This document shows positions 7,379 through 63,247 of a DNA stretch of 64,000 nt, in pieces. Below the pieces are notes generated by a model, which saw only the letters and a list, made by a program, of their open reading frames with translations, did not search any database and was not told where the DNA came from. The stretch spans positions 783,508 to 847,507 of the forward strand of contig CAWDYU010000001.1 in the NCBI GenBank assembly GCA_963806875.1, read 5' to 3'. The position numbers were made by a program, and so were the translations under genes. The DNA comes from an uncultured Gemmatimonadales bacterium. Lineage in GTDB: Bacteria > Gemmatimonadota > Gemmatimonadetes > Gemmatimonadales > GWC2-71-9. Position 1 is the stretch's first letter; each line of letters begins with the position of its first letter.

Positions 7379-7451
7379 TGGAGCGGAAGGGAATCGAACC
7401 CTTGACCCCCTGCTTGCAAAGCAGGTGCTCTGCCAACTGAGCTACCGCCCC
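7379..7451 (-). tRNA. tRNA-Ala (anticodon TGC)
   Basis: Hand-folded cloverleaf: GGGGCGG TA GCTC AGTTGGCA GAGC A CCTGC TTTGCAA GCAGG GGGTC AAGGG TTCGATT CCCTT CCGCTCC A. The G3:U70 alanine identity pair is present, the anticodon loop reads TT-TGC-AA, and CCA is not encoded. Confidence 0.9.
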
Positions 7452-21093: not shown

Positions 21094-21101
21094 GGAGCAC
21101 C

Positions 21102-36272: not shown

Positions 36273-37240
36273 GATCACCTATCTCGAGGCGATCCGCGAG
36301 GCGATCACCGAGGAGATGGAGCGCGACAGCAACGTCTTCTGTCTCGGCGAGGACATCGGCGCATTCGGCGGCGCGTTCAAGGTCACCGAGGGTCTGCACG
36401 CGCGGTTCGGCGACATGCGCGTCATCGACACGCCGATCGCCGAGATCGGCATCGTCGGCGCGGCGGCGGGCGCGGCGCACACGGGATGCGACCGGTGGTC
36501 GAGATGCAGTTCATCGACTTCGTCTCGTGCGCCTACGACATGCTGACCAACTACGTCGCCACGGCACGCTACCGCGCCTTCCTGCCCTGCCCGATCGTGG
36601 TGCGCGGACCGACGGGCGGCTATGTGCGCGGTGGGCCGTTCCACTCGCAGAATCCCGAAGCGGCATTCCTGCACACGCCGGGGCTCAAGATCGTCTATCC
36701 GGCGACCGCCGAGGACGCGAAGGGGATGATCAAGGCGGCGATCCGCGACGAGGATCCGGTGCTCTTCTTCGAGCACAAGTACCTGTATCGCCGGATCAAG
36801 GGCGACGATGCCGGCGGGCGACCACGTGGTGCCGCTCGGGCAAGGCGCGGATCGCCCGCGAGGGCACCGACCTCTCGATCATCACCTACGCCGCCACGGT
36901 GTGGAAGGCACTCGAGGCGGCGGAAGAGCTCGCGGCGGACGGGATGTCGGTCGAGGTGATCGACCTGCGCACGCTGCTCCCGCTCGACGATGCGGCTATC
37001 GTTGCTACAGTGAAGAAGACCAATCGGGTGCTGGTGGTCCACGAGGACACCGTCACCGGTGGGGTCGGGGGCGAGATCACGGCCCGCATCAACGAGCTCT
37101 GCTTCGAGTGGCTCGATGCGCCGGTCCGGCGGGTGACCGCGCACGACGTTCCGCTGCCGTACGCGCCACCGCTCGAGGATTTCGTGTTGCCGCAGACGTC
37201 GGACATCGTGCGCGCGTGCCGTTGGCTCGCCGCCTACTGA
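36265..37240 (+). pseudogene. 2-oxoacid dehydrogenase E1 beta subunit, about 3 frame changes
   Basis: [21 protein letters not shown]...[17 protein letters not shown], then [12 protein letters not shown]..., then PAGDHVVPLG, then KARIAREGTDLSIITYAATV... are spread over three frames (shifts near 36487, 36805 and 36840). The first shift is a G missing from a G run. Confidence 0.75.
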
Positions 37241-43427: not shown

Positions 43428-44472
43428 GTGAGTGAACCGATGAACCCCCCGCCGAGCCCCGAAACACTGGTGATCATCGGTTCGGGCCCTGCCGCCTGGA
43501 CCGCCGCGATCTACGCCGCTCGCGCCCAGCTCAACCCGCTGGTCTACGAGGGCGAGCCGGCTCGCGAGATGATCCCCGGCGGACAGCTCATGTTCACCAC
43601 CGATATCGAGAACTTCCCGGGATTTCCCGACGGTATCGACGGCCAGGAGATCATGGCCCGGATGCGCTACGCAGGCTGAGCGGTTCGGCACGCGGATCAT
43701 CACCGAGAACATCACGAAGGTCGACTTCTCCAACCGTCCGTTCACGCTGACGCCGTCGTATGGTGCACCGGTGATGGCCAAGACCGTGATCGTGGCAACC
43801 GGCGCACGAGCCATCTGGTTGAACGTCCCGAACGAGCAGCGGTTCGCGCAGGCGGGGCTCGGCGTGTCGGCGTGCGCGGTGTGCGACGGCGCCCTGCCGT
43901 TTTTCCGGAACAAGGTGCTGGCAGTGGTGGGCGGGGGTGATTCAGCAATGGAAGAGGCGACCTACCTCACCAAGTTCGCGAGCCAGGTGGTGATCATTCA
44001 TCGTCGCGACGAGTTCCGCGCGAGCAAGGTGATGGCGGACCGGGCGCTCTCCAACCCGAAGATCCGGGTCGAATGGAACACCGAGGTGACCGAGGTGCTG
44101 GGCGAGGACGAGATCACCGGTGTTCGCATGCGCGACACCGTGACTGGCGCCGAGCGCGACCTGTCCGTGGGCGGCCTCTTCGTCGCGATCGGGCACACGC
44201 CCAATACTGCCTTCCTCGATGGTCAGCTCACGACGTCGCCCAAGGGATACATCCTCACGCCCACCCCGTGGCGAACCGAGACCAATGTCACCGGGGTGTA
44301 CGCCGCCGGCGACGTGATCGATGACTATTACCGACAGGCCATCACGTCGGCGGGCACGGGCTGCATGGCTGCACTCGAAGCCGAGCGCTGGCTTGCCCAC
44401 CATGAGGACGGACCGGCAGAGTCGCCGGTGCTGGAGACGGCGGAATCGTCGATTGGCCGGGCAGGCAAGTGA
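43428..44472 (+). pseudogene. trxB: Thioredoxin-disulfide reductase, one frame change
   Basis: [20 protein letters not shown]..., then after a shift near 43672 ...[33 protein letters not shown] (redox-active CAVC plus the NADPH GGGDSA motif) ...YAAGDV. GTG start with GGAG 7 nt upstream. Confidence 0.8.
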
Positions 44473-46641: not shown

Positions 46642-47819
46642 GTGCCGGCTGCGCGGTGGCGGCAGCTTGCGTTGCTTGCCGTCGCGCAGCTGCTGGCGAT
46701 GTCTGTCTGGTTTGCGGGGAGCGTTGCGCTCCCCGCCTTCCGTTCCGGCATCACGCTCACCGACTCACAAGTCGGCTGGCTCACGTCGGCAGTGCAGTTG
46801 GGGTTCGTTGCCGGCACGCTGATCGCTGCGGTGCTCAACCTTCCCGATATCTTGCCGGCCCGCTGGTATGTCGCGGCGTCGGCGTTGTGTGCTGCGTTGG
46901 CGAATGCCTCGCTGCTGATGGCCGACGGATTTGCCCCCGCGGTGGCGTCGCGCATACTCACTGGCGTGGCGCTCGCCGGCGTGTATCCGCCGGCGATGAA
47001 GATGGCCTCGACCTGGTTCCGGGAGGGGCGTGGGCTCGCCATCGGTACCGTGGTCGGCGCGCTCACGGCGGGAAAGGCGTTGCCGTACCTGCTGAGTGGC
47101 GTTCATGTCTCGCTCGGCGCTGCGGTACTGGTGCCGTCGGGTGGCGCGCTGTTCGCGGCGCTGCTCGTTGCGGTGGCATATCGTGACGGGCCGCATGCGT
47201 TTCCGGCCCGGCCGTTCTCGTGGCAGCTCGCGGGGACGGTGGTGCGCGACCCCGCGCTGCGGCGCATCAGTGGCGGATACTTCGGGCATATGTGGGAGCT
47301 CTATGCCTTCTGGGCGTGGCTGCCGGCTTTTCTCGCTGCGTCCGCCGTGGCATCGGGGCAGGGCGAGGTCTCGAATGCTCTGGAGTTTCGGGTGCATCGC
47401 CATCGGTGCAGTGGGATGCGTGTGGGGTGGGTGGGCAGCCGACCGGGTGGGTCGACCGCGGGTGGTGCGTATGGCACTGGTGACGAGCGGTGCCTGCTGC
47501 CTGCTCAGTGCGGCGCTGTTCGGCGCACCGTTTGGCGTGGTGATCGCTGCTCTGCCTTGTCTGGGGTGTCGCGGTGATCGCCGATTCGGCACAGTTCTCG
47601 GCGCTGGTCACCGAGCACGCGCCGCCCCACGCCGTGGGCACGGCGCTCACGTTGCAGACGTCACTCGGGTTTCTGCTCACGATCGGGTCGATCCAGCTGT
47701 TGCCGGTGCTTGCCGGCGCGGTGGGGTGGCGCTGGACGATGATGGTGCTGGCGCTGGGTCCCGTGGCGGGGCTGTGCGCGGTGCGAGGGATGGGTGGCAG
47801 GGGGCTCACGAGTCGATGA
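46642..47819 (+). pseudogene. MFS transporter, 2 frame changes
   Basis: Twelve-helix-like hydrophobic pattern spread over three frames (46642 frame, 47096 frame, 47574 frame). Shifts are near 47385 and 47560. Confidence 0.65.
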
Positions 47820-48924: not shown

Positions 48925-50025
48925 TCACGTGAAGTGAAGGTTCCGCTGGAAGTCGTCGGGGCTCGTGGCGGCCGCCATGGCCACGTCGAGGGTGATGAGG
49001 CCTTCGCGATGGAGCGTCATCAGGTTCTGGTCGAAACTCTGGGTGCCATACATCGGCCCGCCATCTTCGATCAGCTTCACGATCTCGGCGGTCTTGTCGG
49101 GATCCGCGATGCACTCCTCGATCGCCGACGTATGCCGCATGACCTCCACAGCGAGCACCTGGCCCTTGCCATCGGCACGAGGCAGGAGTCGCTGCGACAC
49201 CATCGCGCGCAGCACCTCGGCGAGTCGCTTCCGGACCCCAAGCTGCTCGCTCGGCTCGAACACGCTGGCGAACCGGGTCACGCCGCGGATCGAGTCCGTG
49301 GTGTGCACCGTCGCCATGATGAGGTGTCCGGTCTCGGCCGCCTGAAGCGCCACGTCCACCGTGACCCGGTCGCGCATCTCCCCGATCAGCACCACGTCGG
49401 GATCCTGCCGGAGGGCCGCACGCAGCGCCGGCTCGAAGCCGTGGGTGTCGCTGCCGACTTCGCGCTGGATCACGATCGAGTTGACGTCGCGGTGCAGGAA
49501 CTCGATCGGATCCTCGATCGTGACGATCTTCTTGCGCTTGTGACGGTTGATGTGATCGACCATCGCCGCCATGGTCGACGACTTTCCGCTGCCGGTGGTG
49601 CCGGTGACCAGAATCAGGCCGCGATCTTCCATGGCGATATCGGTGAGCACCGGCGGAAGGCCGAGCTGATCGAAGGTGGGTATGATCTCGGCAATGCCAC
49701 GGAGTACCGCCGAGAACGAGCCGCGCTGGAGGCAGATGTTGGCGCGAAAGCGGCCGAGGCCGGCAACGGAATATGAGCAGTCCATCTCCGTGAGCTCGGT
49801 CAACCTGTCGACGACGTTCTCCCGCGTCGCCTTCCTGGCGCTGACCAGTATCTCCGCGGCGATCTCGGCGAGATCGGCTGCAGTCAGGGTCGGCGAGCCC
49901 TCGATCGGTACGACCTCGCCGTCGATCCGGAGCCGGAGCGGCCCACCTGCACTGACGTGCAGGTCCGAGGCCCTGCGATCGTGAGCCGCCTTCAGGCCTG
50001 TCCTGAATACGTCGAGAATCGGCAT
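48925..50025 (-). CDS. pilT: Type IV pilus retraction ATPase PilT/PilU family
   Basis: 366 aa. Walker A GTTGSGKSST, Asp box/Walker B (IVLIGEMRD) and His box (GHLIMATVHT). The N-terminus is typical of PilT. Confidence 0.85.
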   Translation of the reverse strand: MPILDVFRTGLKAAHDRRASDLHVSAGGPLRLRIDGEVVPIEGSPTLTAADLAEIAAEILVSARKATRENVVDRLTELTEMDCSYSVAGLGRFRANICLQRGSFSAVLRGIAEIIPTFDQLGLPPVLTDIAMEDRGLILVTGTTGSGKSSTMAAMVDHINRHKRKKIVTIEDPIEFLHRDVNSIVIQREVGSDTHGFEPALRAALRQDPDVVLIGEMRDRVTVDVALQAAETGHLIMATVHTTDSIRGVTRFASVFEPSEQLGVRKRLAEVLRAMVSQRLLPRADGKGQVLAVEVMRHTSAIEECIADPDKTAEIVKLIEDGGPMYGTQSFDQNLMTLHREGLITLDVAMAAATSPDDFQRNLHFT

Positions 50026-50135
50026 TGCACGCTCCCGATGAGTGGAACTGCCGGCACCGCCGCGTGCGGCACGCGGAGCGCGGCGGACGTGATCCTGCTA
50101 TCCCGGTTGGATCGGAAAGTTATGGGGGTCGGGAC

Positions 50136-50163
50136 ACAATACCACGCCGTGTCATCCGATCAA
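50136..50163 (-). promoter_or_regulatory. Candidate sigma70-type promoter upstream of pilT
   Basis: On the minus strand: TTGATC, a 16-nt spacer, then TATTGT, about 110 nt upstream of the pilT ATG in a 230-nt intergenic gap. Pattern match only. Confidence 0.2.
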
Positions 50164-50255
50164 AGGGACGTGGCGGAGGAGGTGCAGCGTTGTCACCGAC
50201 GTGCCGTTGCCGGCATCGACGACACATCCCAAAGCGGCCAGGGATGGCCGCGGCG

Positions 50256-51263
50256 TCAGCGAGGGCGATTGATCCCCAGGGCGACCAAGACGTCATCAAT
50301 GGCCACCGCTGCGTACCGGCCCTGTGGAACGGCTCGCACCGCCCTTGCGCGCACAACTCCGATCACCTCGGCGCGATCATTGAGCAACGGGCCGCCGCGG
50401 TCGAGCGCCCCGACGGTCACGGTGGTCTGCACGACCCGAATTACTTCCGATGTACTCACGGACGCGACGACTCCCCGCGAGAGGGTTTGCGGATGGCTGA
50501 GCGCCGATCCGATACCGAACACCCTCTGTCCGGGGACAACCGTGGTGATCGACCCCATTCGCAATGGCACCAGCGAATCCAGCGAGACCTTGAGCAACAC
50601 CACGCCCACCATGGTATCCGACGCCTGCACCACCGCGCCGCTTCGCCGACCATCGGCGGTCTTGACGATGATCGCGGTCGATCCGCGCACGACATCGTAA
50701 TTCGTGAGGATCAGCCCGCTCGCCAGCACGACGAATCCACTGCCTTGCGCGTTGTCAGTCTCGATCTGCACGACCGATGGCGCGGCGATCGCGGTGACGG
50801 CTCGCACGCTCAGCGGAGTCGCTGACCTCGGTTGCAGGTCGCGGGGAAGAACCAGCGGGGGCGATGGGTCCGGCTTGAGGTAACGAATTGCAATGCCGGT
50901 GGCAGACGCGGCCGGGATGGTCATGGAACCGGTCAATGACGCGCCCTTGAACTCCGATGTCTCCCGGATGATGACGGCGTCGGCGCCCAGCGCGCGGGCC
51001 TGCGCCTGCAGCATCGGCACCAGGTCGGCGAGCTGCACGGTGTTGAACGCCGTGGCAGCGCGCTTCTGTGCCGAGACCATGCCGACTTCTTCAAAGGGAT
51101 GGTCGACCTTCTGTTCGGCGAGGTAGATGTCGATCGGGGCCGCGTCGGGCCTTGCGGCGAGCGTCTTGCTCCCGGTGCGAACACTCTGTTGAGTCGTCGC
51201 CGCACAACCGCACAGCCCAAGGACCAGGATCAGTATGGCGCCCCTCTGATGCAATGCACGCAT
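50256..51263 (-). CDS. Lipoprotein with a trypsin-like (S1C/HtrA-type) fold lacking all three catalytic residues (pseudoprotease)
   Basis: LVLGLCGC lipobox. The C-terminal half aligns to HtrA-type proteases, but TNxHVV is TNYDVV (H->D), D[IL]A[VL][IL] is GVVLL (D->G), and GNSGGPL is LDRGGPL (S->R). Confidence 0.7.
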   Translation of the reverse strand: MRALHQRGAILILVLGLCGCAATTQQSVRTGSKTLAARPDAAPIDIYLAEQKVDHPFEEVGMVSAQKRAATAFNTVQLADLVPMLQAQARALGADAVIIRETSEFKGASLTGSMTIPAASATGIAIRYLKPDPSPPLVLPRDLQPRSATPLSVRAVTAIAAPSVVQIETDNAQGSGFVVLASGLILTNYDVVRGSTAIIVKTADGRRSGAVVQASDTMVGVVLLKVSLDSLVPLRMGSITTVVPGQRVFGIGSALSHPQTLSRGVVASVSTSEVIRVVQTTVTVGALDRGGPLLNDRAEVIGVVRARAVRAVPQGRYAAVAIDDVLVALGINRPR

Positions 51264-51321
51264 GACGCCCCCATTGATTGCCGCCTGACGCAGACTGAGT
51301 CTGCGCGAATCTCCCTCGTGA

Positions 51322-53028
51322 CTACCCCTGCACGGTTGCTCGCGTCACCCGCCAGCTTCCGTTTGCGCCCTGGCTCAGCTGCAACGTGAACCGCGCAGTC
51401 TTGCGCTTCGATGACCCGAATGCCGAGCGCACCTCGACCTCACTCGAGACCGTGGCGGTGGCCTCCGAGCCGTTGACGTTCACCGACGGTGTGCCCGGCG
51501 CCCCCAGCACCAGACGCTTCTCGCGCAGCATTCGGTCGGCTGGCTGGCCATCGACCGAACCGGTGAGACCGGCGCCGTCGCCTCGGCGGAACCAGTCTCG
51601 TACTGCTGTCGCGACTTCGCGCTCCGAGTCCGCGGCGGAGTTGCGCGATGTGCCACCGTCCGACCCGCCGACCGGAGAAGGCGTGTCGGGCTTCTTCTCG
51701 GGCGCTGGCGCTGGCGTGGGCGGTGGTGCAGGTGCCGGTGCCGGTGCCGGTGTCTGCCGGCTGGGCGGAGTTTTCCGCACCGGGTCCGGCTGCCGGATGA
51801 CCTCCGGCGGTGGCGCAACCCCACTGCCTCCCACGGGCGCAGCCGGCCGCGACTGTGCGCCCGGCCCGAGCACCGGAGGTGGAATGGGGCGCGCCGACAC
51901 GGTCGGCCCGATCTCTGTCGATGGCGGCCCTTCGCTCGGAACTGCCGGCGTGTCGGTACCGCCGCTGCGCAGCACCACGCCAACGGCGAGTGCCAGCATC
52001 GCGACCGTCGACCACGTGCGCCAGTCGGTCCAGAGCCCGCCACTTGTACCACCACTCGACGACCCGGCCGCGGTCGTGTATACCGGCGCCGTTGTCGCGA
52101 CCGGAGCCGTCGCTGCGCTTCCGTCGTGCGGCGTCGCATGACGCGGCGTCGAGGCGATCCGGGTCGCGGGGGCAGGCCCGCGCGCCGCGTGTGTCTCGGT
52201 GACGACGCTCGCGGCCGCTTCCATCAGTGCATTCCGCATCGCCGCCGCCGTGGCGTATCGGTCTCCCGGCAGCTTCGACATCGCCCGGAGCACCGTGCGG
52301 TCGACCACCGCCGGCAACTCCGGGTTGCTCTCGCTCGGCGCCATCGGCGGCTCGTTCAGCTGCCGCATCATCAGCTTGTAGTCGCTGTCGGCCTCGAACG
52401 CGACCTTGCCGGTCACCAGTTCGTAGAACACGGCGCCGAGCGCGTAGAGATCGGTACGACCGTCGCACTCCTCGCCGCGCAATTGCTCCGGTGCCATGTA
52501 GGCTGGCGTGCCGACCGAGTGTCCGTGCCGGGTTTGCCTGCTGCTTCCTGCCATCCTGGCGATGCCGAAGTCCATCACCTTGGTCGCATCGCCCGGCCCG
52601 ATCATGATGTTCGCCGGCTTGATGTCGCGATGCACCACGCCATGATCGTGGGCATGGTCCAGCGCCTCGGCGACCTGTGCGCAGATCCCCGCTGCACGCC
52701 GCCAGCTCACCCGTCCGGTTCGGGCAACGAGATCCTCCAGCGTCTCTCCACGGAGGAACTCCATCACCATGTAGAACTCATCGCCGTCCCGCTCGAGCCC
52801 GTAGAGCGTTGCGATCCGCGGATGCGCCAGGCGCGCCAGCGCAATCGCCTCGGTGCGGAACCGTTCGACCAGTGCGGTCTGCCGGACGAGATCGGGGCGG
52901 AGGACCTTGATGGCGACGTCGCGGTCGAGCATCTCATCGCGGGCGCGATAGACCGTGCCCATCCCGCCCTCACCCAACCGGTCGACAATCTGGTACTTGC
53001 CGAGGGTGGTGCCACGGCGGTCGCTCAC
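51322..53028 (-). CDS. Ser/Thr protein kinase with a TM helix, Pro-rich periplasmic linker and a small C-terminal domain
   Basis: GEGGMGTVY, VAIKVL, HRDIKPANIM, DFGIA and APE motifs. TM helix WSTVAMLALAVGVVL and a PAPAPAPAPPPTPAPAP linker. The start overlaps the upstream stop (ATGA). Confidence 0.85.
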   Translation of the reverse strand: MSDRRGTTLGKYQIVDRLGEGGMGTVYRARDEMLDRDVAIKVLRPDLVRQTALVERFRTEAIALARLAHPRIATLYGLERDGDEFYMVMEFLRGETLEDLVARTGRVSWRRAAGICAQVAEALDHAHDHGVVHRDIKPANIMIGPGDATKVMDFGIARMAGSSRQTRHGHSVGTPAYMAPEQLRGEECDGRTDLYALGAVFYELVTGKVAFEADSDYKLMMRQLNEPPMAPSESNPELPAVVDRTVLRAMSKLPGDRYATAAAMRNALMEAAASVVTETHAARGPAPATRIASTPRHATPHDGSAATAPVATTAPVYTTAAGSSSGGTSGGLWTDWRTWSTVAMLALAVGVVLRSGGTDTPAVPSEGPPSTEIGPTVSARPIPPPVLGPGAQSRPAAPVGGSGVAPPPEVIRQPDPVRKTPPSRQTPAPAPAPAPPPTPAPAPEKKPDTPSPVGGSDGGTSRNSAADSEREVATAVRDWFRRGDGAGLTGSVDGQPADRMLREKRLVLGAPGTPSVNVNGSEATATVSSEVEVRSAFGSSKRKTARFTLQLSQGANGSWRVTRATVQG

Positions 53029-55206
53029 GACATCACCGGCGAGGCCTGGGTGATACTGACCGCTTCGGGGCCCGACATCGGCACCCCGAGGATCACCACG
53101 CTCACGTTGTCGGGGGCGCCGGCCTCGCGGGTTACCCTGACCAGTTCGTTGCAGGCGAGGTGTGGGGGCATCGAGTCGACCACCCGAAGGATCTCGGCCT
53201 CGGGGATGACATCATGCAACCCGTCGGACGAGAGCAGGAGTCGGTCGCCGGGGCGGATCACGAACGGTCGCGCCCAGGTCGCGACGTCGACGTCGGGGTG
53301 ACTGCCGAGTGCACGGGAAATCACGTTCTTGTCGGGATGCTCGCGCGCCTCATCGCGGGAGATGCTGCCCTCCCTCACCAGTTCCATGACGGCGCTGTGG
53401 TCCTCTGTCATCACGAAGATCTCGTTGGCGCGGATGAGGTAGCAGCGTGAGTCGCCGACATGGGCGCACCACGCGAGTCCGCCGCGCAACACGATGGCAG
53501 TGCACGTTGTGCCCATGCCGCGGAGCGCGGTGTTGCCGGCGGCAGTGTCGTAGATCTCGCGGTTGGCGCGCCGCACCGCACGTGCGAGGATCTCACCAGG
53601 GTCGCCGGTCTCCTGATATCGCTCGGCGACGGCGTCGGCGGCAATCCGGCTCGCCTGCTCGCCGCCGGCATGGCCGCCCATGCCATCGCACACCATGGCG
53701 AGCAACGCACCGTTTTCGTCGGGCGGCCGCACCACGCGCACGGTGTCCTCGTTGTTGGTGCGCTGGCAGCCCGGATCACTCGCCGTTCCTATCACCACCC
53801 GTGATTCGACACCGAGGGCATCGCCGTGAAATGCCGGACGATCGACGGTCTCCTGCGCGCGTCGCGCGGCTGATGCCTTGCGCCCCCATGGAACCCCGAA
53901 CCATGCAAAGCCGAGGAGCAGGGGCAGCAGCGGTCCGCCGTTCGAGTGCGGCCGACCACCGCTCGGCCGCAGCACGAACGAGTATTCGGAGCGTCCCTCG
54001 GTCACGTTGAAGCGCACGTCCTCGTCACGGTAACCGCTGCGCCGCAGGATCAGGTGTACTTCTGCGCCCAACGCCATCTGCAGGCGATAGGGTGTCTCTC
54101 CCACCTGCTGTCCGTCCTGCCAGACGGTGGCGGTGCCATTGATCGTGTTCACGGTGACGTTGCGCACCCGCCCAGGGGGTGTGAGGGTGGCGGGTGGTGC
54201 GGAGTCACGAACGATGCTGACAGCCATGGAATCGGCCGGGCCAGCGGGATTGCGAGACCAGAGGCCACTGAACGCGAACACGAGTGCCATTGCCGCAACG
54301 CTGCCTGCCGCCAGCAGCGGCGCGTGGCGGCTTGCCCTGGCGGCGAGTTCCGGCATGCTGACCGGTCCTGGGGCACGCTCGCCAGTGCGGATTCGCTCGA
54401 GGTCGCTGCGCAGCGTATCGAACGATCCATACCGGGCCCGCGGGTCGACCTTGAGGCATCTGCTCGACCACGGCGTCGACGAAACGCGGCAAGCCTGGGT
54501 TCGATACTGTCGGTGCCGGATAGCGGGCGGTACGGATCCGCTGGGTGATGTCCTCCACCCCTGCGGCTGCAAACGGGTGCCGCGCCGTGAGCATCTCGTA
54601 GAAGAGGACACCGAGCGCCCAGATCTCGCTCTGCATGTCGGCTGGCGCGCCCATGAGTTGTTCGGGAGCCATCGATTGCAGCGTCCCGATGACGCTTCCA
54701 TCGGCGGTGAGGGCGGGAGAATCGGGTCCCTTGGCAATCCCGAAGTCGAGCAGTTTCACTTCGCCCGACCGGGTGATCTTCACATTGCTCGACTTGATGT
54801 CCCGGTGCACCGTGCCCCGCTTGTGTAGGTAGTCGATGGCTTCCACCAGGCCCTGCATGCTGTCAACCGCTCGTGCCAGCGGCATCGGACCATGGGAGGC
54901 GAGCCACGATTCGATGGTCTTGCCATCGACGAACTCCAGCACGATCGCCGGTGTCCCGTCATGCGAAGCAAAGGCGATCATCCTGGCGATTCCGGGGTGC
55001 GCGAGAGACGAATGGATTCGCGCCTCGTTGGCGAAGCGTGCGCGAAGCGATTCCGATCCGCGCACCGCCGTGAGGATCTTCACGGCAACTTCCTGCCCCG
55101 ACTGCCGATCCACGCCGCGATAGACCTCCCCCATGCCACCGGCGCCGATGAACTCGACGAGATGCCAACTCCCGAACTGGACGTGCAGCCAGGTGCCGGT
55201 GGTCAT
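53025..55206 (-). pseudogene. Apparent single-polypeptide fusion: Ser/Thr kinase - TM - PEGA-like domain - TM - PP2C phosphatase, one frame change
   Basis: The kinase motifs (GAGGMGEVY, VAVKIL, HRDIKSSNV, DFGIAK, APE) end at ...FVDAVVEQM. An extra C near 54456 shifts the frame to LKVDPRARYGSFDTLRSDL. The sequence then runs without a stop through TM1 (LLAAGSVAAMALVFAFSGLW), a PEGA-like domain (VNTINGTATVWQDGQQVGETPY...GYRDEDVRFNV), TM2 (LLPLLLGFAWFGVPW) and a PP2C domain (NEDT, MVCDGMGGHAGGEQAS, SSDGLHD, DNVSVV). Confidence 0.7.
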
Positions 55207-55220
55207 GAGTCTTCCTCTGG

Positions 55221-56969
55221 TCAGTTCGAGTTGGGTGCGACCGACATCAACTCCATCCCGTAGCGAATCGGGAGGGAGAACGAGATCTGCACGTCGCCAG
55301 TCTTGCCGGCGAAGAAGATGCCGATCACCCGTCCGAATGCATCGAACATCGGACCGCCGCTATTGCCGCCGCCGGTCGAGTTGATGGTCAGCTGATAGGT
55401 GTCACCGCTGGAGTACTCCTGCATCGACTGGGTGGTCGGGCCGTCGGCAGCGCGCAGGATCTTGCCGATGTTGCCGACTGACACGGTCGGGTCGGGGACG
55501 ACTCGCTGCTGCGCATCACGGTTGAAGAGATCCCGTGAACGGAGGACCGCGACGACATAGTCGGATACCGACGGATACCCCATGACGGTGACCTGATCTC
55601 CGACCTTGGTTTCGTCGTATGAGTCGTACAGCTCGACCTTGGGGAGCGTGGAGGGCGCCGAGACCTTGATGAGCGCCACGTCGTGCTGGTCGCTGACTCG
55701 CTGGGTCGCAGCCTCGAGCGGAGTGGTGTTCTTGCGGAAGCGAACCATCACGTATTCCTGCCGGCCGCGGAAAACATCGAACTCGTTCTTCGGCCCGGTC
55801 TGCTTCGTCTCCGACGGGATCCAGCGGGTTGGCGGGCGCGTGAGGATGGGCTGTCCCTGCTGGTCGAACGCGACCTGCCCTCCCTGCATGACCACCCCCA
55901 CCGCGTTCGGGTCGAAGCCGTAGGGCGCGCGCCAGTTGGCGGCAACGTGGCGGTTGGTGAGGATGAAGCCGTCATTGGTCACCACAAACCCCGAACCACT
56001 TCCCGTCACGGCGATCGGCGCTCCGCTTGCAGCGTCGAGGGTGAGGGCCGGTTCGATGGCGCCGTCATCCAGCCGGACGTAGGCCGGCACCATGTCGCCG
56101 GCACCCTGCATCAGCGTGATCACACGCTTCTGGCCGTTGACCTGGACTTGCAGCTGGTTTGGCACGTAGCGGTGGAAGACCTGGGCACCGGTCGGGGCGT
56201 AGATGAGGTTCCAGGAGAAGTCCACCTGTACCACTGCGCCGGAGTTTTTCTCGGCGACCTCGGCCGGAGTCTGCATCGTGCCCAGCGCCTGCGCCCGCTC
56301 TCCTGCCTTGCCGATCGAGTCGGTACGCGCCGCGAGCAGCGCTGCCTGTCGCTTCGCTTCTTCGCCGCTGCTGTCGGCGTTCGACTTGAGGTACGCTCCG
56401 CCGGCCACGGCGAGTAGCACGACGGCGGCCACGGCCATCATCGTGGTGCGCTTTCCCTCATTGCGGGTCTCGCCGATCATCCGCTCCACCGTGGCCTTGC
56501 CGACGCTGCCGGCGGGCCGCGCTGCAGGCACGGTCTCGCCCACCGCGACACCGGCGGTGCGCGTCTCACCCGCAGTGCTCGCTGCTGCGGGCGCTGCGAG
56601 CCCGCCCAGGCGGGTGGCCTTCACGTATGCGGCGGGAAGTGGGTCGATCTCGAATCCGATCTCGGGTCCACCAGCGCCGAGCTGGATGATGTCGCCCGGT
56701 GCGAGTGGCACACTGCCGGAGATCCGGACCTTGTTGAGGAAGGTGCCGTTGCGGCTGTTGAGGTCGGTGAGGGAGAAACGGATGGGATCCTTCGGGTCCC
56801 GCACGATTCGGGCGTGCTGGCGACCGACGAGATCGTCCTTGTCGGCGTCGAACCGGACCTGGGCGATCGGGTCGCGCCCGAGGGTGAGTTCCGAGACGTC
56901 AGCGAGAGGGAATTCCTCGACCGACCCGGCTTTCGATCCCTTCATATGACGCAGGATCACACGTTCCAT
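55221..56969 (-). CDS. FHA domain - TM - trypsin-like serine protease (S1C) fusion protein
   Basis: N-terminal FHA domain (LTLGRD...VGRQHARI...LTDLNSRNGTFLN), TM helix (MMAVAAVVLLAVAGGAYL), and a periplasmic protease domain with an intact triad (TNRHVA, HDVALIKV, GGNSGGPMF). Confidence 0.85.
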   Translation of the reverse strand: MERVILRHMKGSKAGSVEEFPLADVSELTLGRDPIAQVRFDADKDDLVGRQHARIVRDPKDPIRFSLTDLNSRNGTFLNKVRISGSVPLAPGDIIQLGAGGPEIGFEIDPLPAAYVKATRLGGLAAPAAASTAGETRTAGVAVGETVPAARPAGSVGKATVERMIGETRNEGKRTTMMAVAAVVLLAVAGGAYLKSNADSSGEEAKRQAALLAARTDSIGKAGERAQALGTMQTPAEVAEKNSGAVVQVDFSWNLIYAPTGAQVFHRYVPNQLQVQVNGQKRVITLMQGAGDMVPAYVRLDDGAIEPALTLDAASGAPIAVTGSGSGFVVTNDGFILTNRHVAANWRAPYGFDPNAVGVVMQGGQVAFDQQGQPILTRPPTRWIPSETKQTGPKNEFDVFRGRQEYVMVRFRKNTTPLEAATQRVSDQHDVALIKVSAPSTLPKVELYDSYDETKVGDQVTVMGYPSVSDYVVAVLRSRDLFNRDAQQRVVPDPTVSVGNIGKILRAADGPTTQSMQEYSSGDTYQLTINSTGGGNSGGPMFDAFGRVIGIFFAGKTGDVQISFSLPIRYGMELMSVAPNSN

Positions 56970-57055
56970 GATGACGAGCCTCCAGTGGATGGGATTTGCC
57001 GGAAATCGGCGCTTCCTCCCACACGCGTCAGGGGCTCCTCAAACGGCTCATCAGC

Positions 57056-59332
57056 TCACGGTTTCGCCCCGCTGGTCTCCGGCGCATCGCGCCACCTGGC
57101 CTCGTCGGCCGGCCGACCCCACGCGCGGTACAGGGCGGCGAGCCGTTGCCGCGCCTCACGCGCCGGCTGGCTCGTGGCGCCGCGCACCTCGGCCAGTCGC
57201 CGCTCGGCGGGGAGGAGCAGGCGCTCCGCTTCGGGGTAGCTGCCTCGCTTGATCAGCGTCGCAGCGAGAACGCTACGACTCGATGACAACAACCAATGCT
57301 CCGCCGGAAACACCGCCTCGCGCAGTGCCAGGCTCTCGCGTAGCCAACGCTCGGCCACCTCGAGCGAATCGAGCTCGGCGAGCGCTCGCCCGAGGACCTG
57401 CATGCCGGTGGAGACCGCCGGGTGACTGTCGTCGAGTGTGCGGCCACGCAGTGCCAGCACCCGTCGCGCCCACACTGCCGCGTCGGCCGGGCGCCCCGAG
57501 CTGAGGAGCAGGTCGGCATAGCTGAACATCGTCCAGGCGTAATCCGGATGCTCCGCTCCGAGCAGGATCTTCCGCACCCGGAGCACTTCGCGGTAAGCCG
57601 AATCGGCGGCCTCCGGCCGGCCCATGCGTTCGAGGATGGTAGCGTAGGCGTTGAGGGTCGAGGCGTGCAGCGGGTGAATGTCGTCGAACGCCTCGGCTTC
57701 GAGTGCCAGCGCAGCGCGAAAATGGGCATCAGCCGAATCGGTCTCACCGGCCTCGCCAAAAACCGCTGCGAGGTTGTGGTGCGCGTACGCGAGCGCCGAA
57801 TCGTTGTCGGGCTCGAGTCGCCGCTGCATGGCGAGCGCCTCCACGAGAAAGGGCACCGCACCTTTTGCGTCGCCGAGCCGGCTCCGGAGTCGGCCGCGGT
57901 GGTCGAGGAATGCCACACCAGTGGGCGTCTCGGCGTCGGCGCCGGCGCCGAGCAGGTCGATCGCCACGGCAAGCACGGAGTCGGCGCGTTCGAGTTCGCC
58001 GTCGAGTTCGAGCGCCGTGCTGAGGTTGGCCAGCGCCGCTGCCAGGCGTTCATGATCCGGCGGGTCGAGGCGTCGCGCCGCGTCCACCGCTCGATGGGAC
58101 TGGTCGATCGCGAGCGCGAACTCGCCGAGTGTCAGGTAGGTGTTGGAGAGGACGTGACGAACCCGCACTTCGAGGTCGGGTTGATCTTTCAGGGAATCGG
58201 CGCGCAGTGCCGCGGTGTCGAGCACCTCACGCATCGTGATGTCGCGGCCGAGCTGACCCGGGTCCGGCGCCGCAAGCATCGATGTGAAGAACGCAGTCAC
58301 CGCCGTTGCCTGCTCGCGCTCGTGCACGGCACGAGTGGCCTGACGACGCGTGGCGACGACGCCCCAGCTGAGCGAACCGAGCACGAGAACGCGCGGCAAC
58401 GAGTTCAAGCCGACGCCGACGAATGAACTTCGTCAGGCGATAGCCGGCTCTATCGGGACGGGCAGCAACCGGAAGTCCATCGAGATGCCGCTCGATATCG
58501 TCGGCGAAGCGCGCCACGGTACCGTAGCGACGGTCGGGATCTTTCCGGAGTGCCATCAGCATGATGGCGTCGAGATCGCCGCGCAGCCGCCGTGCACCTG
58601 CGACAGTGCTGGGACGGGGGGAGCTTCGTGGCAGACGATCGCCTCGATCTCCGTCCGCATCCTGCCATGGAGGTCGAACGGGCGACGTCCGGTCAACAGC
58701 TCGTAGAGGATCACGCCGAGCGCATAGACATCGGTCGCAGGGCTGGCGGGGAGCCCGCGCAGCTGCTCCGGCGCGGCATACTCGGGTGTCAGCCCCGGTT
58801 GATCGCCTTGCGTGAGCGGCAGCTGGCCGCTTCCCTCGTCCTCCCGAAGGAGCCGGGCGATCCCGAAGTCGAGCAGCTTGACCGTACCAGCCTCGGTCAC
58901 GAGGATGTTGCCAGGCTTGAGGTCGCGGTGCACGACCAGCTGCTGGTGGGCATGCTGTACCGCAGCGGTGACCTGGAGAAAGAGTACCAGCCGTTGGCGA
59001 AGCGTCAGCTTGCGCGCGTCGGCCCAGGTGGTGAGTGGCGCTCCGTCGACATACTCCATGGCGAAGTACGGCTGGCCGTCGACCGTGATCCCGCCGTCGA
59101 TCAGCGCGGCAATGTTGGGATGGTCGAGGGCGGCGAGAATCGTTCGCTCGTAACGGAACCGCCTGACTGCGAGATCACCCTCGGCGCTCGCCCGCATGAG
59201 CTTGATCGCCACGCGATGCTCGAACTCGGTGTCTGCGCGTGCAGCCTCGTACACCGACCCCATCCCACCGGTACCGATCTGTCGCACCAACTGATATGGG
59301 CCGATCCGCATGTTGAGGGCGGGATCGTTCAT
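57056..59332 (-). pseudogene. Ser/Thr protein kinase - TM - TPR repeat protein (downstream paralog), 2 frame changes
   Basis: MNDPALNMRIGPYQLVRQIGTGGMGSVYEA..HRDLKPGNILV..DFGIA. Shifts lie near 58590 and 58400. The rest is collinear with the intact paralog at 59332-61803 (RRLRGDLDAIMLMALRKDPDRRY..., AVTAFFTSMLAAPDPGQLGRDITMREVLD..., TPR repeats). The ATG overlaps the upstream stop (TGATG). Confidence 0.75.
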
Positions 59333-61803
59333 CAGGGCACCTTTGCCGGCAGGAGTGCCGCCCAGCGGGCGGCCTGGGCTGGTTTCTGCCACGCGGTATA
59401 GAGGCGCACCAGTCGCGTGTGGGCATCGGTCATCGGCTGCGAGCTCGGTTCCCGGTCGGCAGCCAGCGCGGTCTCGCTCCGCAGCAGCAGTCGCTCGGCC
59501 TCGACGTATCGACCGACACCGGTATAGAAATCACCGAGGATTCCTTCGCTGCTGGCGATGAGCCAGTGGTGCGCCGGCAAGGAGGCGCGACGGAGCGCGA
59601 GACTTTCCTTCAGGTACCGCTCAGCCGCAACAGTCGAGTCGAGATGACTGAGCGAGATGCCCAGTGCCTGCATTGCGGTGGCGATCGCCGGATGCGCGTC
59701 GGGCAAGGTCCTGCCACGGAGGGCCAGCACCTCGCGCGCGCGACCGGCCGCGCGGCTGTACTGCTTCATTCGAGCCAGGAACTGTGCCGACTGGAAGAGC
59801 GCCCAGGCGTAGTCGGGATGCTCGGCTCCGAGGAGGCGTCGCTGCATTGCGAGCGCCGCCTCAGAGACGGAATCAGCCCGGTCGAGGTGCCCGTTGAGTT
59901 CGAGCGAGTACGCGTACTGTGCCATGGCGTTGGCGACCAGCGGATGCTCGGCGCCGTGCGCCCGGCGTGCGGCCGCGACCGATTGGGCGTGCAACGTTTC
60001 GCCCTCGGCGAAGCGGCCCAGTTGGGTGATGACTTGCCCGAGATTGTTGTACGAGAAGAGCAGCAGGGAGTCGTTGTCGGGGGCTACGCGCGCCCGGAAC
60101 TCGAGCGCCTCGCGGTAGAGTTGTGCCGACGCCGGGAGGTCGCCCGCTGCGTCGCGCAGTCGTGCCCGCGAATCGAGGATGCTCGCGCGGGAGAGATCAT
60201 CGGGGGCTGCGTGCCGCTGCACCATCGGATCCGCGATCCGCATCACGGAGTCTGCCTCGGGATAGGCTCCCGTGAACTCGTAGATCCCGCTCACCTTCGA
60301 GAGCAGCGTGCCGGTGGCCAGGTCGCCGTTGGGCGACAGCATGCGCCGCAGTACCACCGCCCGGCTGTACTGCGCCGCGGCGGCTTCGTACTCGCCGAGA
60401 CCGCGATAGGTGTCACCGATCACCTCGCGTATCTCGGCGGCAAGGTCCGGTCGCTCGTCGAGTGAGTCCGCCCGGATTGCGGCGGTGTCGAGCACCTCGC
60501 GCATCGTCACCGAGCGACCGAGCCTGGCCGGGTCGGGGGCGGCAAGCATGGTGGTGAAGAATTCGGTGACAGCCGTGGAGCGATCACGCTGGAGTTCGGC
60601 GGCGCGCGCCTGCCGTGTGCTGAAGACCATCCCACCGACCGACGAACACAGCAGCAGCACCGCGGCGATCGACTCGACGGGGTGGCGTCGAAGGAGCCTG
60701 CGGGTCCGATATCCCCATCCCTCGGGGCGGGCGTGGACCGGGCGCCTGTCGAGCAGCGCCTCGACATCCTGGGCCATCTCATCGACCGATCCGTAGCGAC
60801 GTTCTGCCTCCTTGCGGAGCGCGACAAGAATGATCGCATCGAGGTCGCCGGAGATCCGGCGTCGAAGGGCGGGCGCCGACCGTGCTGCCAGCTTGCGCCA
60901 GCGATCGGGACCGAGCGCTTCGCTGGGCCTGGGCGGCGGTGTGGTACAGACGATCTGCTCGATCTCGGCGATAAGCTTGCCCTGCAAACCAAACGGGCGT
61001 CGGCCGGCGACCAGTTCGAAGAGGAGAACACCGAGCGCGTAGACGTCGGAGGCCACACCGACAGGAAGTCCGCGCACCTGTTCCGGGGAGGCATACTCGG
61101 GCGTGAAGATCCGGGCACCGCCCTGCGTCGCCGGAAGTTGATCGGTCCCCTCTGATACCCGCAGCAGTTTCGCGATTCCGAAGTCGAGGAGCTTCACCGT
61201 GCCCTCGTCGGTCACCAGGATGTTTGCCGGCTTGAGGTCACGGTGGACGACGAGTTGCTGGTGGGCGTGCTGCACCGCCCGGCAGACCTGCAGGAAGACG
61301 AGGAGCCGTCCACGAAGCGGCAGCGTCCTTTCGTCACACCATTCGGTGATCGGGCGACCCTGCACGTACTCCATCACGAAGTAGGGCTGGCCGTCGTCGG
61401 TCACGCCGCCATCGATGAGTGCTCCGATGTGGGGATGACTCAGGTTGGCCAGGATCTGCCGTTCGTAGCGGAATCGCCGAATGGCGAGATCACTCTCGAC
61501 GCCCCGCTGCAGGAACTTGATCGCCACGCGCCGGTCGAATCCCGGGTCGGCGCGGATGCCTTCGTACACGATGCCCATCCCGCCGACACCGATCTGCCGG
61601 ATGACACGGTACGATCCGACCTCCGTCCCCGACCGGTCACTCCGGTCGGCCAGCGTGAACCCCGGTTCCCGGGAGATACGGGTCTGCAGCGTGGCGCCGG
61701 TCTGCCGGTGCGCAGTGAGCAGGGCGCGCACCTCGTGACGCAGCGCCGCGTCGTCGGGGGAAGCGGCCTCCAGGAACGCGTCGAGGTCGGGCGGGTTGCT
61801 CAT
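59332..61803 (-). CDS. Ser/Thr protein kinase - TM - TPR repeat protein with an N-terminal extension (ECF-sigma-associated type)
   Basis: Start taken at MSNPPDLDAFLEAASPDDAALRHEVRALL. Kinase motifs (GVGGMGIVYEG, VAIKFL, HRDLKPANILV, DFGIAK), TM helix (IAAVLLLCSSVGGMVF) and a long TPR region. Confidence 0.85.
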   Translation of the reverse strand: MSNPPDLDAFLEAASPDDAALRHEVRALLTAHRQTGATLQTRISREPGFTLADRSDRSGTEVGSYRVIRQIGVGGMGIVYEGIRADPGFDRRVAIKFLQRGVESDLAIRRFRYERQILANLSHPHIGALIDGGVTDDGQPYFVMEYVQGRPITEWCDERTLPLRGRLLVFLQVCRAVQHAHQQLVVHRDLKPANILVTDEGTVKLLDFGIAKLLRVSEGTDQLPATQGGARIFTPEYASPEQVRGLPVGVASDVYALGVLLFELVAGRRPFGLQGKLIAEIEQIVCTTPPPRPSEALGPDRWRKLAARSAPALRRRISGDLDAIILVALRKEAERRYGSVDEMAQDVEALLDRRPVHARPEGWGYRTRRLLRRHPVESIAAVLLLCSSVGGMVFSTRQARAAELQRDRSTAVTEFFTTMLAAPDPARLGRSVTMREVLDTAAIRADSLDERPDLAAEIREVIGDTYRGLGEYEAAAAQYSRAVVLRRMLSPNGDLATGTLLSKVSGIYEFTGAYPEADSVMRIADPMVQRHAAPDDLSRASILDSRARLRDAAGDLPASAQLYREALEFRARVAPDNDSLLLFSYNNLGQVITQLGRFAEGETLHAQSVAAARRAHGAEHPLVANAMAQYAYSLELNGHLDRADSVSEAALAMQRRLLGAEHPDYAWALFQSAQFLARMKQYSRAAGRAREVLALRGRTLPDAHPAIATAMQALGISLSHLDSTVAAERYLKESLALRRASLPAHHWLIASSEGILGDFYTGVGRYVEAERLLLRSETALAADREPSSQPMTDAHTRLVRLYTAWQKPAQAARWAALLPAKVP

Positions 61804-61909
61804 CGAGCGCCTGTTCGAACAGCCCCTTGATGCGCGCCAGGCGAGTCGGCGTCCAGTCTGGAGTCTGGACCATGTCAGGACACGCGGCGTTGTTGGCTGA
61901 AGTCGCTCA

Positions 61910-62489
61910 TCAGTGCGCGGGCGAGGCGCCGCCCATGGCGTGCAGCAGGAAGGCCCGGGCGAAGGTCCAGTCACGCTTCACGGTGGCGGGGGAGATCTCC
62001 AGCGCCTCGGCGGTCTCGTCGATCGAGAGCCCGCCGAAGAAGCGGAGCTCCACCACTCGGCCCTGGCGCGGATCCAGCGCCTCGAGGCGCTCGAGGGCGT
62101 CGTTGAGGGCGAGCACATCGAGTTCGCGGTCGCAGGCATCTCCGATGGACTCGTCGAGGGTGACCCGGATCCCATGGTCGCGCTTGATGGTCCGGCGCTT
62201 GCGCGCCTGGTCGATCAGGATCCGGCGGATCGCCTGGGAGGCGATGCCATAGAACTGCGACCGGTTCTGCCAGTTGGCGTTCCGCTGGCCGACCGTCCGC
62301 ATGAACGCCTCATGGACCAGTTCGGTCGGCTGCAGGGTGTGGCCGGCCGATTCCCGCTGCATCGCGAAGGTGGCCAGCTTGTGAAGCTCGGCGTAGACCA
62401 GTGGCGCGAGCTGCATCTGCGGCGGCCGCGTTGCCGGCGCTCAGGTCTGCGAGCAGCCGGGTGACCTCGTGTTCGGGCGCGTCGGGCAT
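61910..62489 (-). pseudogene. ECF-type RNA polymerase sigma factor (TIGR02999 / kinase-associated ECF43-like), one frame change
   Basis: MPDAPEHEVTRLLADLSAGNAAAADA in one frame, then LAPLVYAELHKLATFAMQRESAGHTLQPTELVHEAFMR...RVVELRFFGGLSIDETAEALEISPATVKRDW in another (shift near 62420). No anti-sigma gene is adjacent; the next gene is a Ser/Thr kinase. Confidence 0.75.
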
Positions 62490-62648
62490 GAAACCCCTTT
62501 GGGCTCGGGGTCGGGAGTGCATGGGGATGTCGGCGTCGGGACCCGGAAAGTAGCCCGAAGCGGCTCGCGGGACGAGAGTTCCATGCGATGAGCCGATTTC
62601 GGGGTCGCTCACGCGTGTGAGAGGAACCCGATCCAGGAGCCCACTCGC

Positions 62649-63247
62649 ATGCGCACCACCATCACCGCCATTGCCGTTCGTCGCCCTGCTGCCAGCGCTT
62701 GCACCGCTGCAGGCGCAATCCGCCCAGCGGTTCTCTGCGCAGGGATCACTGCTTCACGTGTCACCGTCCGGTGACGCGTATGAAGGTCTGGGCTCCGGCC
62801 TCGGATTCGAGGCGCAGCTCCGCTATACGCCGAGCGCGTTCTCGATCGGCCTCGGCTACCAGAGTTCGTCGCACGACATTGATTTCGAGGGACTTCACCG
62901 GCGAGACCGCCAAGATCTCCGGCGTGTTCCTCGAGCCGCGCTATGTGATCGATGTCGGCAGCATGGCCTACGCGCCCTACATCGCGGGACGGCTCGCGCT
63001 ACTCAAGCAGTCGATCGACATCGATGCGCTCGAGGCGAGCGCCAGCGGGACGCAGATCAATATCGGCGGTGGTGTGCTGGTGCGGCTCACGCCGCGGATC
63101 AACCTCGACCTGGGCGCCACGTACGGCGCGATCGATTTCGACGACGTCGAAGTGACGCTCGACGGCGAGACCGCCACCATCGCCGACAGCGGCGGCAGCG
63201 GCAAGAACCTGGTGCTCCGCGCCGGCCTGACGATCGGCATCAAGTAG
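62649..63247 (+). pseudogene. Small outer-membrane beta-barrel protein, 2 frame changes
   Basis: ATG with AGGAG 9 nt upstream. The signal peptide (...FVALLPALAPLQAQ) and alternating beta-strand pattern end in ...NLVLRAGLTIGIK, spread over three frames (shifts near 62675 and 62890). Confidence 0.6.

Follow-up and report, generated by a model that had tools for sequence, protein, structure and literature searches.

Can a run of co-directional genes with related signalling domains be read as a single signalling circuit? The question is raised by a 13.6-kb region (48925-62489, minus strand) in a 64-kb stretch of DNA from an uncultured Gemmatimonadales bacterium; we call the whole stretch the window. 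Eight genes lie there on one strand. A first-pass annotation took them for one transmembrane circuit, in which phosphorylation and periplasmic proteolysis are coupled, with transcription and possibly pilus retraction as outputs. All eight genes carry the domains claimed for them (Pfam and NCBIfam agree). The region consists of three parts: a sigma-kinase pair, a conserved operon and two chance neighbours. On balance, and with modest confidence, we believe that two linked signalling modules stand beside two unrelated genes, and that the sigma factor would transcribe the operon. The genes, all on the minus strand, are these:

61910-62489: extracytoplasmic function (ECF) sigma factor, TIGR02999/ECF43 type, about 192 residues (Pfam, NCBIfam)
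59332-61873: TPR-kinase 1, a Hanks-type transmembrane kinase with C-terminal TPR (Pkinase, TPR_12/TPR_10)
57056-59332: TPR-kinase 2, a tandem paralogue with kinase, transmembrane segment and TPR (Pfam)
55221-56969: FHA-protease, with FHA domain, one transmembrane segment, a coiled stretch and an HtrA-like S1 protease (Pfam FHA, Trypsin_2)
53025-55206: kinase with transmembrane segment and PEGA, fused to PP2C, about 726 residues (Pfam Pkinase, PEGA, PP2C_2)
51322-53028: second operon kinase (Pfam Pkinase), start codon GTG at 53028
50256-51263: trypsin-fold lipoprotein, 335 residues, catalytic triad lost (Trypsin_2)
48925-50025: PilT/PilU-family ATPase (TIGR01420, 412 bits against a cutoff of 319)

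The first-pass annotation was right about the gaps of 86, 14, 58 and 230 nt and about the TGATG overlap. The gap between sigma factor and TPR-kinase 1 is 36 nt and not 106, as three-frame comparison puts the kinase ATG at 61873 rather than 61803. The overlap between the PP2C fusion and the second operon kinase reads GTGA, not ATGA. The region was also called an island. It is not one in the compositional sense, since GC content is uniform at 64-70% throughout the window. The window is Gemmatimonadales chromosome: among the matches listed in a homologue search, its proteins have their nearest relatives in Gemmatimonadales metagenome-assembled genomes (MAGs).

A four-gene operon conserved across phyla

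Homologues of the FHA-protease were used to collect loci (numbered here with an L) from species-representative genomes and long contigs, and the proteins of the window were placed in 28 of them by tblastn. The order FHA-protease, kinase (with transmembrane segment and PEGA), PP2C, kinase recurs on one strand in at least three phyla. The hosts among the Gemmatimonadota include the cultured Gemmatimonas aurantiaca T-27; among the Acidobacteriota they are Blastocatellia and Pyrinomonadaceae, and among the Bacteroidota Runella and Chitinophagaceae. The first kinase alone is missing in five Flavobacteriia loci (Aequorivita, Winogradskyella and a Bacteroidota MAG). Called genes with Pfam assignments confirm the order in G. 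aurantiaca T-27, L083-L085 and L093. When open reading frames (ORFs) from 25 loci were clustered, only the protease and the kinase/PP2C families were common across phyla; all other families were limited to one phylum or clade. Trypsin-only alphaproteobacterial matches from the contig scan (L030-L082) were not used.

The set of writer, eraser and reader with a periplasmic protease is thus a real unit, as the annotation had proposed, with the same order and strand in at least three phyla. Its claim that type VI secretion system (T6SS) and cell-division genes are lacking in the region also stands, and neither T6SS core genes nor rodA/pbpA-type division genes lie near the operon in the compared loci, by ORF clustering in the 25 loci or by called genes. 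On the combination, too, we agree: the literature yielded no characterised system that joins an FHA-protease, kinases and PP2C, no characterised operon or member of the family, and likewise no specific work on ECF factors and kinases in the Gemmatimonadota. 

The members of the operon

The FHA-protease has one strong transmembrane segment, at residues 176-194, with basic residues before it. By the positive-inside rule, these basic residues would make the FHA domain cytoplasmic and the protease domain periplasmic. The triad His341/Asp430/Ser537 is invariant in 105 of 105 family sequences. An AlphaFold2 model built on that alignment has a mean pLDDT of 79, with values above 90 over most of the protease; it supersedes an earlier model from 23 sequences (pLDDT 57). 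The best PDB matches are the catalytic domains of HtrA1, AlgW, DegP, DegS, DegQ and MucD, and target-normalised TM-scores to HtrA1 and DegS catalytic-domain chains are 0.71-0.78. The protease domain carries large insertions (about 340 aligned columns against a domain of 200 residues). Pfam finds no PDZ domain in either the FHA-protease or the lipoprotein, and the FHA-protease ends about 30 residues past the catalytic domain. In the FHA pocket Arg32, His52 and Asn74 are invariant in the 105 sequences. The family is large: a profile search of 1.84 billion cluster representatives found at least 512 representatives of 50%-identity clusters at E<=1e-30, most of them full-length matches of 550-620 residues.

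The fusion of kinase and PP2C is real in this clade. It is a single intact ORF of 726-774 residues in L004, L005, L083, L084 and L085. PP2C is a separate soluble protein of about 290-320 residues in most lineages and is fused in the Gemmatimonadales and L008; the two genes are separate in G. aurantiaca, L007, L010, L011 and L093. The phosphatase keeps its metal-binding Asp motifs, read from the translation, and scores 228 bits against the Stp1/IreP model, just below the cutoff of 230. A second transmembrane segment had been claimed before PP2C. We find there a short, weak hydrophobic stretch that a hydropathy scan does not call.

In the second operon kinase a Pro-rich linker joins the kinase domain, with a weakly hydrophobic segment after it, to a C-terminal domain of about 110 residues that is conserved with G. 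aurantiaca. Its orthologues come after PP2C in at least three phyla. All four kinases of the region retain the VAIK Lys, HRD and DFG in their translations.

Kinases joined to a protease might also suggest an anti-phage or conflict system in which the kinases sense and the protease is the effector. The kinases do match the PADLOC models PD-T4-6 and mad6, and the protease domain weakly matches RT-Protease_XI. These matches are generic and reach only the level of the kinase or trypsin domain, PP2C has none, and no full PADLOC system is present, so we reject the defence reading. The synteny of the operon with housekeeping neighbours, and sequence identities that follow taxonomy over at least three phyla, are unlike what is seen in a mobile defence island, and the protease is predicted to be periplasmic. 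We give this alternative almost no weight.

The downstream neighbours

The annotation extended the circuit downstream to the trypsin-fold lipoprotein and PilT, and the test it suggested, conservation of the order of all eight genes, has a divided outcome. The four-gene operon is kept across at least three phyla, and it is kept without the lipoprotein and PilT in 28 of 28 loci: neither lies within 10 kb of the operon in any of them (tblastn). We read both genes as lineage-specific chance neighbours, with no participation in the circuit to be seen.

The lipoprotein is predicted to be catalytically dead, as the annotation had said. Aligned to MucD and to its sole full-length homologue, it has Asp for His, Gly for Asp and Arg for Ser at the triad, and the triad motifs are not restored in other reading frames. 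That homologue, 54% identical, is the only full-length one among 5.8 billion proteins; it lies on a 3-kb contig (L086) beside an insertion sequence (IS) transposase and has an intact triad. A role for the dead protease in the circuit, as a partner of the active one, is not borne out by these facts. Nor is there support for pilus retraction as an output.

Synteny breaks right after the last kinase (51263-51322 in the window, against 15648-15714 in L004 and 5504-5708 in L005). There leuS, which is nowhere in the window, directly follows the kinase in L004, L005 and L084, and in L083 one extra gene of 392 residues comes first. In loci of the Acidobacteriota type a secreted protein of about 380 residues directly follows the last kinase (L010 6378-7508, L011 15469-16605, L013 15069-16238; also L012, L014 and L015). 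Neither this protein nor the 392-residue one is related to the dead protease when compared with it.

The case for one integrated circuit of eight genes, with ECF-dependent transcription and PilT retraction as outputs, rests on their common direction and short gaps, including only 58 nt to the dead protease, and on the lack of any terminator-like site between the genes on the coding strand outside a gene. Against it, the two downstream genes are missing even in relatives whose protease is 75-87% identical and whose operon is followed by leuS, no copy of the promoter-like motif described below precedes the dead protease or pilT, and 230 nt separate pilT from the gene before it. Together with the sole full-length homologue of the dead protease, which has an intact triad and lies beside a transposase, this leaves the eight-gene circuit very little probability.

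The sigma factor and its kinases

The second part of the region lies upstream of the operon. Once corrected for frame, as its first 26 or so residues are encoded in a different frame, the sigma factor scores 205.3 bits against TIGR02999 (cutoff 126.15), and its C-terminal 168 residues match PF07638 (4e-47, 160.8 bits, cutoff 21.1). No anti-sigma gene adjoins it: its neighbours are TPR-kinase 1, whose ATG comes 36 nt after the sigma stop, and a divergent outer-membrane protein (OMP) gene. The same arrangement without an anti-sigma gene is found in L083-L085 and L093. Region 2.2 lacks the acidic DAED-type motif. It has the pattern HTLQPT(E/A)LV, in which Thr55 (HTLQPTELV here) is invariant in 17 of 17 sigma sequences and is followed by one acidic residue, as in the QATE of EcfK. 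At this phosphorylation site the ECF43 consensus reads QTTA and EcfK reads QATE (PMC13147305, PMC8999054). The QPTE of the window conserves the same Thr.

Because TIGR02999 is above its cutoff, an anti-sigma gene is lacking, a Hanks-type kinase is adjacent and the Thr is invariant, we assign the pair, on sequence grounds, to the known type of ECF43 sigma factors that are activated by phosphorylation. The background given in the annotation for this type, that it lacks anti-sigma factors and is linked to kinases, is correct (PMC13147305, PMC8999054, PMC7826278). Such factors are very abundant, and 7991 of 8000 candidate homologues of this one were significant.

TPR-kinase 1 is of the type expected for the cognate partner of the sigma factor. 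Its TPR domain is predicted to lie outside the membrane, in the periplasm; a transmembrane segment between kinase and TPR is seen in the L004 orthologue. TPR-kinase 2 is about 48-49% identical to it, has an intact counterpart of 778 residues in L004, and is present in L093 too. An N-terminal extension of about 60 residues (W-T-P-x-R-L...LFEQAL...DLDAFL...LRxEV) is found in the sigma-adjacent kinase and its orthologues and is missing from TPR-kinase 2. It may be the part specific to the sigma factor.

How firmly is this pair tied to the operon? Of 10 informative Gemmatimonadota loci, 8 have it immediately upstream of the operon (the window, L003, L004, L006, L083, L084, L085 and L093). The adjacency persists down to 64-67% identity in the sigma factor and about 58% in the protease (L006, L093), and it holds whether PP2C is fused or not. 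G. aurantiaca, L008, the Acidobacteriota and the Bacteroidota lack the pair at the operon. The link of the sigma factor to the set, which the annotation supposed, is thus seen within part of the Gemmatimonadota only.

A shared promoter-like motif

Alignment across loci of the regions 5' of the protease and sigma genes gave the motif TGAGCC-N18-GCGTG(T/A). The window holds two exact copies and one with a mismatch, all of them intergenic:

62589-62618, plus strand: TGAGCC-N18-GCGTGT, its end 30 nt upstream of the OMP start codon (ATG)
57021-57050, minus strand: TGAGCC-N18-GCGTGT, its end 51 nt upstream of the FHA-protease start codon (ATG)
61880-61909, minus strand: TGAGCG-N18-GCGTGT (one mismatch), directly after the sigma stop, with its second (-10-like) hexamer 6 nt before the ATG of TPR-kinase 1

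The position of the last copy possibly makes for a leaderless-like arrangement. The copy before the OMP gene is exact and in the same position and orientation in L002, L003, L004, L006, L083, L084 and L085, and L093 and L094 hold a GCGTGG variant there. The copy before the protease keeps its position in the same seven loci and in L093. The copy before the kinase stands 6-7 nt from the ATG in L003, L004, L083 and L084, and in 5-6 loci a motif sits in the very gap that separates the sigma stop from the ATG of the TPR-kinase. In a search that allowed spacers of 16-20 nt, the spacer is 18 nt in all 21 listed instances. The exact motif occurs 20 times in 211 kb of Gemmatimonadota loci against 0 times in 1.23 Mb of the other 75 loci.

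The OMP gene itself (62649-63247, plus strand) encodes a PF13505-like beta-barrel of about 200 residues, with Pfam OMP_b-brl on its C-terminal part. Its orthologues are 54-80% identical over residues 92-208 alone, and therefore we take the gene to be frameshifted. It stands in the same divergent position in L002, L004, L006, L008, L083-L085 and L094, and is a conserved neighbour of the module in the Gemmatimonadota. In the Bacteroidota a secreted, beta-barrel-like gene of about 205 residues lies downstream of the operon (L016 15705-16334, L019 15332-15946 and L021 15375-15983, from Runella and a Bacteroidota MAG). It resembles the OMP of the Gemmatimonadota only marginally (E about 0.002, in a tiny database), but small OMPs may be found with the operon more than once. 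The conserved unit is thus smaller downstream than was claimed, without the dead protease and PilT, and larger upstream, with the OMP gene and the promoter motifs.

With its constant spacer, its orientation towards genes and a second element that contains CGT, the motif fits an ECF-type promoter. Its association with TIGR02999 sigma/TPR-kinase pairs makes the sigma factor the best candidate for its reader. Besides the copies already given, it adjoins further TPR-kinase genes in L002 and L091. The extra copies in L002 (G. aurantiaca, AP009153), at 20793-20822 and 21539-21568, precede a 1229-residue Big_2 gene and a 226-residue gene that come right after another TPR-kinase gene; these two genes may belong to the same regulon or to that of a paralogous sigma factor. 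A TGAGCC-N18-GCGTA site adjoins a paralogous sigma/kinase pair in L091 and L092 and precedes the adjacent gene. We infer that the motif is recognised by the sigma factor, which would then drive the operon. The annotation had made sigma-dependent transcription an output of the circuit. Our reading keeps a role in transcription, but to judge by the motif the sigma factor would act upstream of the operon.

An extended conserved stretch follows the second hexamer at 57007-57020 and 62619-62632 (GCGTGT-GGGAGGAA / GAGAGGAA). It recurs at the OMP and protease sites of L003, L004 and L083, and the copy before the kinase is without it. The stretch might serve as a second regulatory element, or it might be a conserved start of the transcript. 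Sigma-70 consensus promoters number 0 in a consensus scan of the window, and terminators are at chance level.

Reading frames and sequence quality

The genes are not all continuous ORFs. Four of the eight are interrupted, by five frameshifts in total, and their counterparts are single intact ORFs in L004, L005, L083, L084 and L085. GC3 and codon-usage frame plots were too noisy for counting across the whole window, so each gene was treated separately, through three-frame translation and comparison with orthologues. Those in the region, and those found in other genes of the window, are these:

near 62415, sigma gene: +1 nt, located against L004
near 61826, TPR-kinase 1: located by three-frame comparison with L004, L083 and L084
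near 58616, TPR-kinase 2: -1, within a C run
near 58393, TPR-kinase 2: +1, compensating the shift at 58616, with an in-frame stop between the two
near 54464, kinase-PEGA-PP2C: +1
near 62890, OMP gene, the neighbour of the module
43440-44472, trxB (housekeeping)
36270-37240, 2-oxoacid dehydrogenase E1-beta (housekeeping): two shifts
20950-22550, amino-acid permease (transport): three shifts
46678-47819, MFS transporter (transport)

Is the locus simply decaying? If the shifts are true, the sigma factor, both TPR-kinases and the kinase-PP2C fusion would be pseudogenes, like the dead protease. Five frameshifts in 13.6 kb would fit such decay, as would the neighbouring protease that has lost its triad by substitutions. 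At least 13 occur in the 64 kb, however, and shifts of the same kind in trxB, E1-beta, the permease, the MFS transporter and the OMP gene imply that those in the eight genes are most likely assembly errors. One indel falls in a C homopolymer, coding signal runs on past each shift, and the out-of-frame segments are highly similar to intact orthologues. In another assembly a kinase is split in L092 where the gene is intact in the sister contig L091 (similarly numbered ENA accessions, ERZ250394xx/395xx). We are therefore quite confident that the shifts are indel errors of the uncorrected long-read type and do not mark pseudogenes, and decay has a small probability.

Scans for tRNA and Rfam families in the window gave a sole match, a tRNA-Ala(TGC) at 7379-7451 on the minus strand. 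Adjoining it is the gene of a Big_2 and RCC1-repeat protein (5523-7223, minus strand), in a stretch of weak coding signal.

A proposed mechanism and the arguments against it

If the two modules are linked as we suppose, they could work as follows. The TPR-kinase would sense a periplasmic cue and, by analogy with EcfP/PknT and EcfK/PknS, phosphorylate the conserved Thr in region 2.2 of the sigma factor (HTLQPTELV). The phosphorylated sigma factor would be able to bind core RNA polymerase, and the holoenzyme would initiate at TGAGCC-N18-GCGTG(T/A) before the TPR-kinase gene, the OMP gene and the operon. Its site before the kinase would give positive feedback on its own kinase, possibly through a leaderless mRNA. 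Two membrane kinases with extracytoplasmic domains (PEGA in one, the Pro-rich linker and C-terminal domain in the other) would then set the phosphorylation state of the cytoplasm. The FHA domain may dock on phosphothreonines of the kinases, and in this way the phosphorylation state may determine where the periplasmic protease sits, how it oligomerises or how active it is. PP2C would reverse the marks of the kinases and reset the system.

Several points weigh against this reading. The taxonomic counts behind it come from a contig scan and are lower bounds. Two exact copies of the motif in the window are weakly significant, as 8 of 100 shuffles reach two. The sigma gene itself has no forward copy of the motif upstream, and none is found at the paralogous sigma/kinase locus L089. 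In G. aurantiaca the motif stands before the operon although no sigma gene adjoins, which means that its reader could be another regulator or a sigma factor whose gene lies elsewhere. A cytoplasmic PP2C in the fusion requires that the protein cross the membrane a second time through the weak hydrophobic segment. The canonical Ser of SxxH in the FHA domain is Gly49 (codon 56823-56825) in 105 of 105 sequences, where VSRRHA of GarA aligns with VGRQHA. Since that Ser contacts the phosphate, classical phosphothreonine binding is not assured.

An alternative view is that the sigma/TPR-kinase pair and the operon are functionally independent, that they are adjacent because TIGR02999 pairs have greatly expanded in this phylum, and that another regulator or sigma factor reads the motif. 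In G. aurantiaca, L008, the Acidobacteriota and the Bacteroidota no sigma gene adjoins the operon, paralogous pairs occur in unrelated contexts, the homologues of the sigma factor are extremely numerous, and its own gene lacks a forward motif copy. Against independence, the adjacency is kept to such low identities and across fused and unfused PP2C lineages. The motif also lies between sigma stop and kinase ATG in 5-6 loci, and beside further TPR-kinases in L002 and L091. We consider independence unlikely, though less so than the other alternatives.

Our preferred explanation, of two linked modules beside unrelated genes, can be taken one step further. The operon would be an 'inside-out' device, found across phyla, in which an atypical FHA domain reads phosphorylation and gates a periplasmic HtrA protease without PDZ; in the Gemmatimonadales, together with the OMP gene, it would form the regulon of a phosphorylation-activated ECF43-type sigma factor that acts through a new promoter, TGAGCC-N18-GCGTGW, and includes leaderless feedback on the kinase. 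This more specific picture is a tentative one, and we think it possible rather than probable.

Comparison with known systems

The sigma factor and its kinase are closest in kind to EcfP-PknT of Vibrio parahaemolyticus and EcfK-PknS of Xanthomonas citri, in which a TIGR02999/PF07638 sigma factor likewise has no anti-sigma gene and lies beside a transmembrane Ser/Thr kinase. They differ in that the kinase here has a large predicted periplasmic TPR domain and is duplicated in tandem, and in that the candidate regulon is an OMP gene and the FHA-protease operon instead of T6SS or polymyxin-resistance genes. The motif TGAGCC-N18-GCGTGW is not given in the papers on ECF43 sigma factors and kinases consulted here (PMC13147305, PMC8999054, PMC7826278).

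For the protease, the natural comparison is with the envelope-stress response. DegS and AlgW are the membrane-anchored HtrA proteases of the sigma-E/AlgU pathway. Like them and DegP, the FHA-protease has an N-terminal anchor followed by a periplasmic HtrA fold with a His-Asp-Ser triad, and DegS and AlgW share with it the context of an ECF sigma factor and outer-membrane proteins. Taken together, the ECF sigma factor, the OMP and the HtrA-type protease recall an envelope-stress regulon. Unlike DegS, AlgW and DegP, the FHA-protease lacks PDZ, no RseA-like anti-sigma substrate is encoded, and a cytoplasmic FHA domain stands before the anchor. Regulatory input to the protease is therefore to be expected from the cytoplasmic side.

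Reader, writer (a transmembrane kinase whose sensor domain is extracytoplasmic) and eraser are co-encoded here, and their genes are probably co-transcribed. They are also co-encoded in the Fha1-PpkA-PppA set of the Pseudomonas H1-T6SS and with FhaA/FhaB, PstP and PknA/PknB in actinobacteria. Here FHA is fused to a periplasmic protease and not to a scaffold; two kinases are present and the Ser of the pocket is Gly. T6SS genes, rodA and pbpA, which mark the T6SS and actinobacterial division sets, are not nearby. The nearest precedent in architecture is NP_811686.1 of B. thetaiotaomicron, listed as FHA-FHA-Tryp in a 2008 survey of prokaryotic serine proteases, which gives it no function, operon context or mechanism (PMC2605481). 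Its FHA domains are N-terminal to the trypsin domain as here, but there are two of them, and the likeness noted here is in architecture.

What the locus means

The region also carries a warning. Reading long-read MAGs at the level of domains can hide frameshifts and can merge unrelated neighbours into one 'island'.

To our knowledge, Hanks-type kinase signalling in the Gram-negative environmental phyla is poorly understood, and apart from T6SS and a small number of ECF43 sigma factors it has hardly any known direct output. The TIGR02999 sigma/kinase pairs of the Gemmatimonadota are massively expanded, and we know of no regulon for them. The motif described here is a candidate for the promoter that TIGR02999-type sigma factors of that phylum recognise. 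The operon ties a periplasmic protease physically to a cytoplasmic reader of phosphorylation, which makes the control of periplasmic proteolysis by phosphorylation directly testable, and it occurs in several cultured hosts, among them Gemmatimonas aurantiaca, Runella and Aequorivita.

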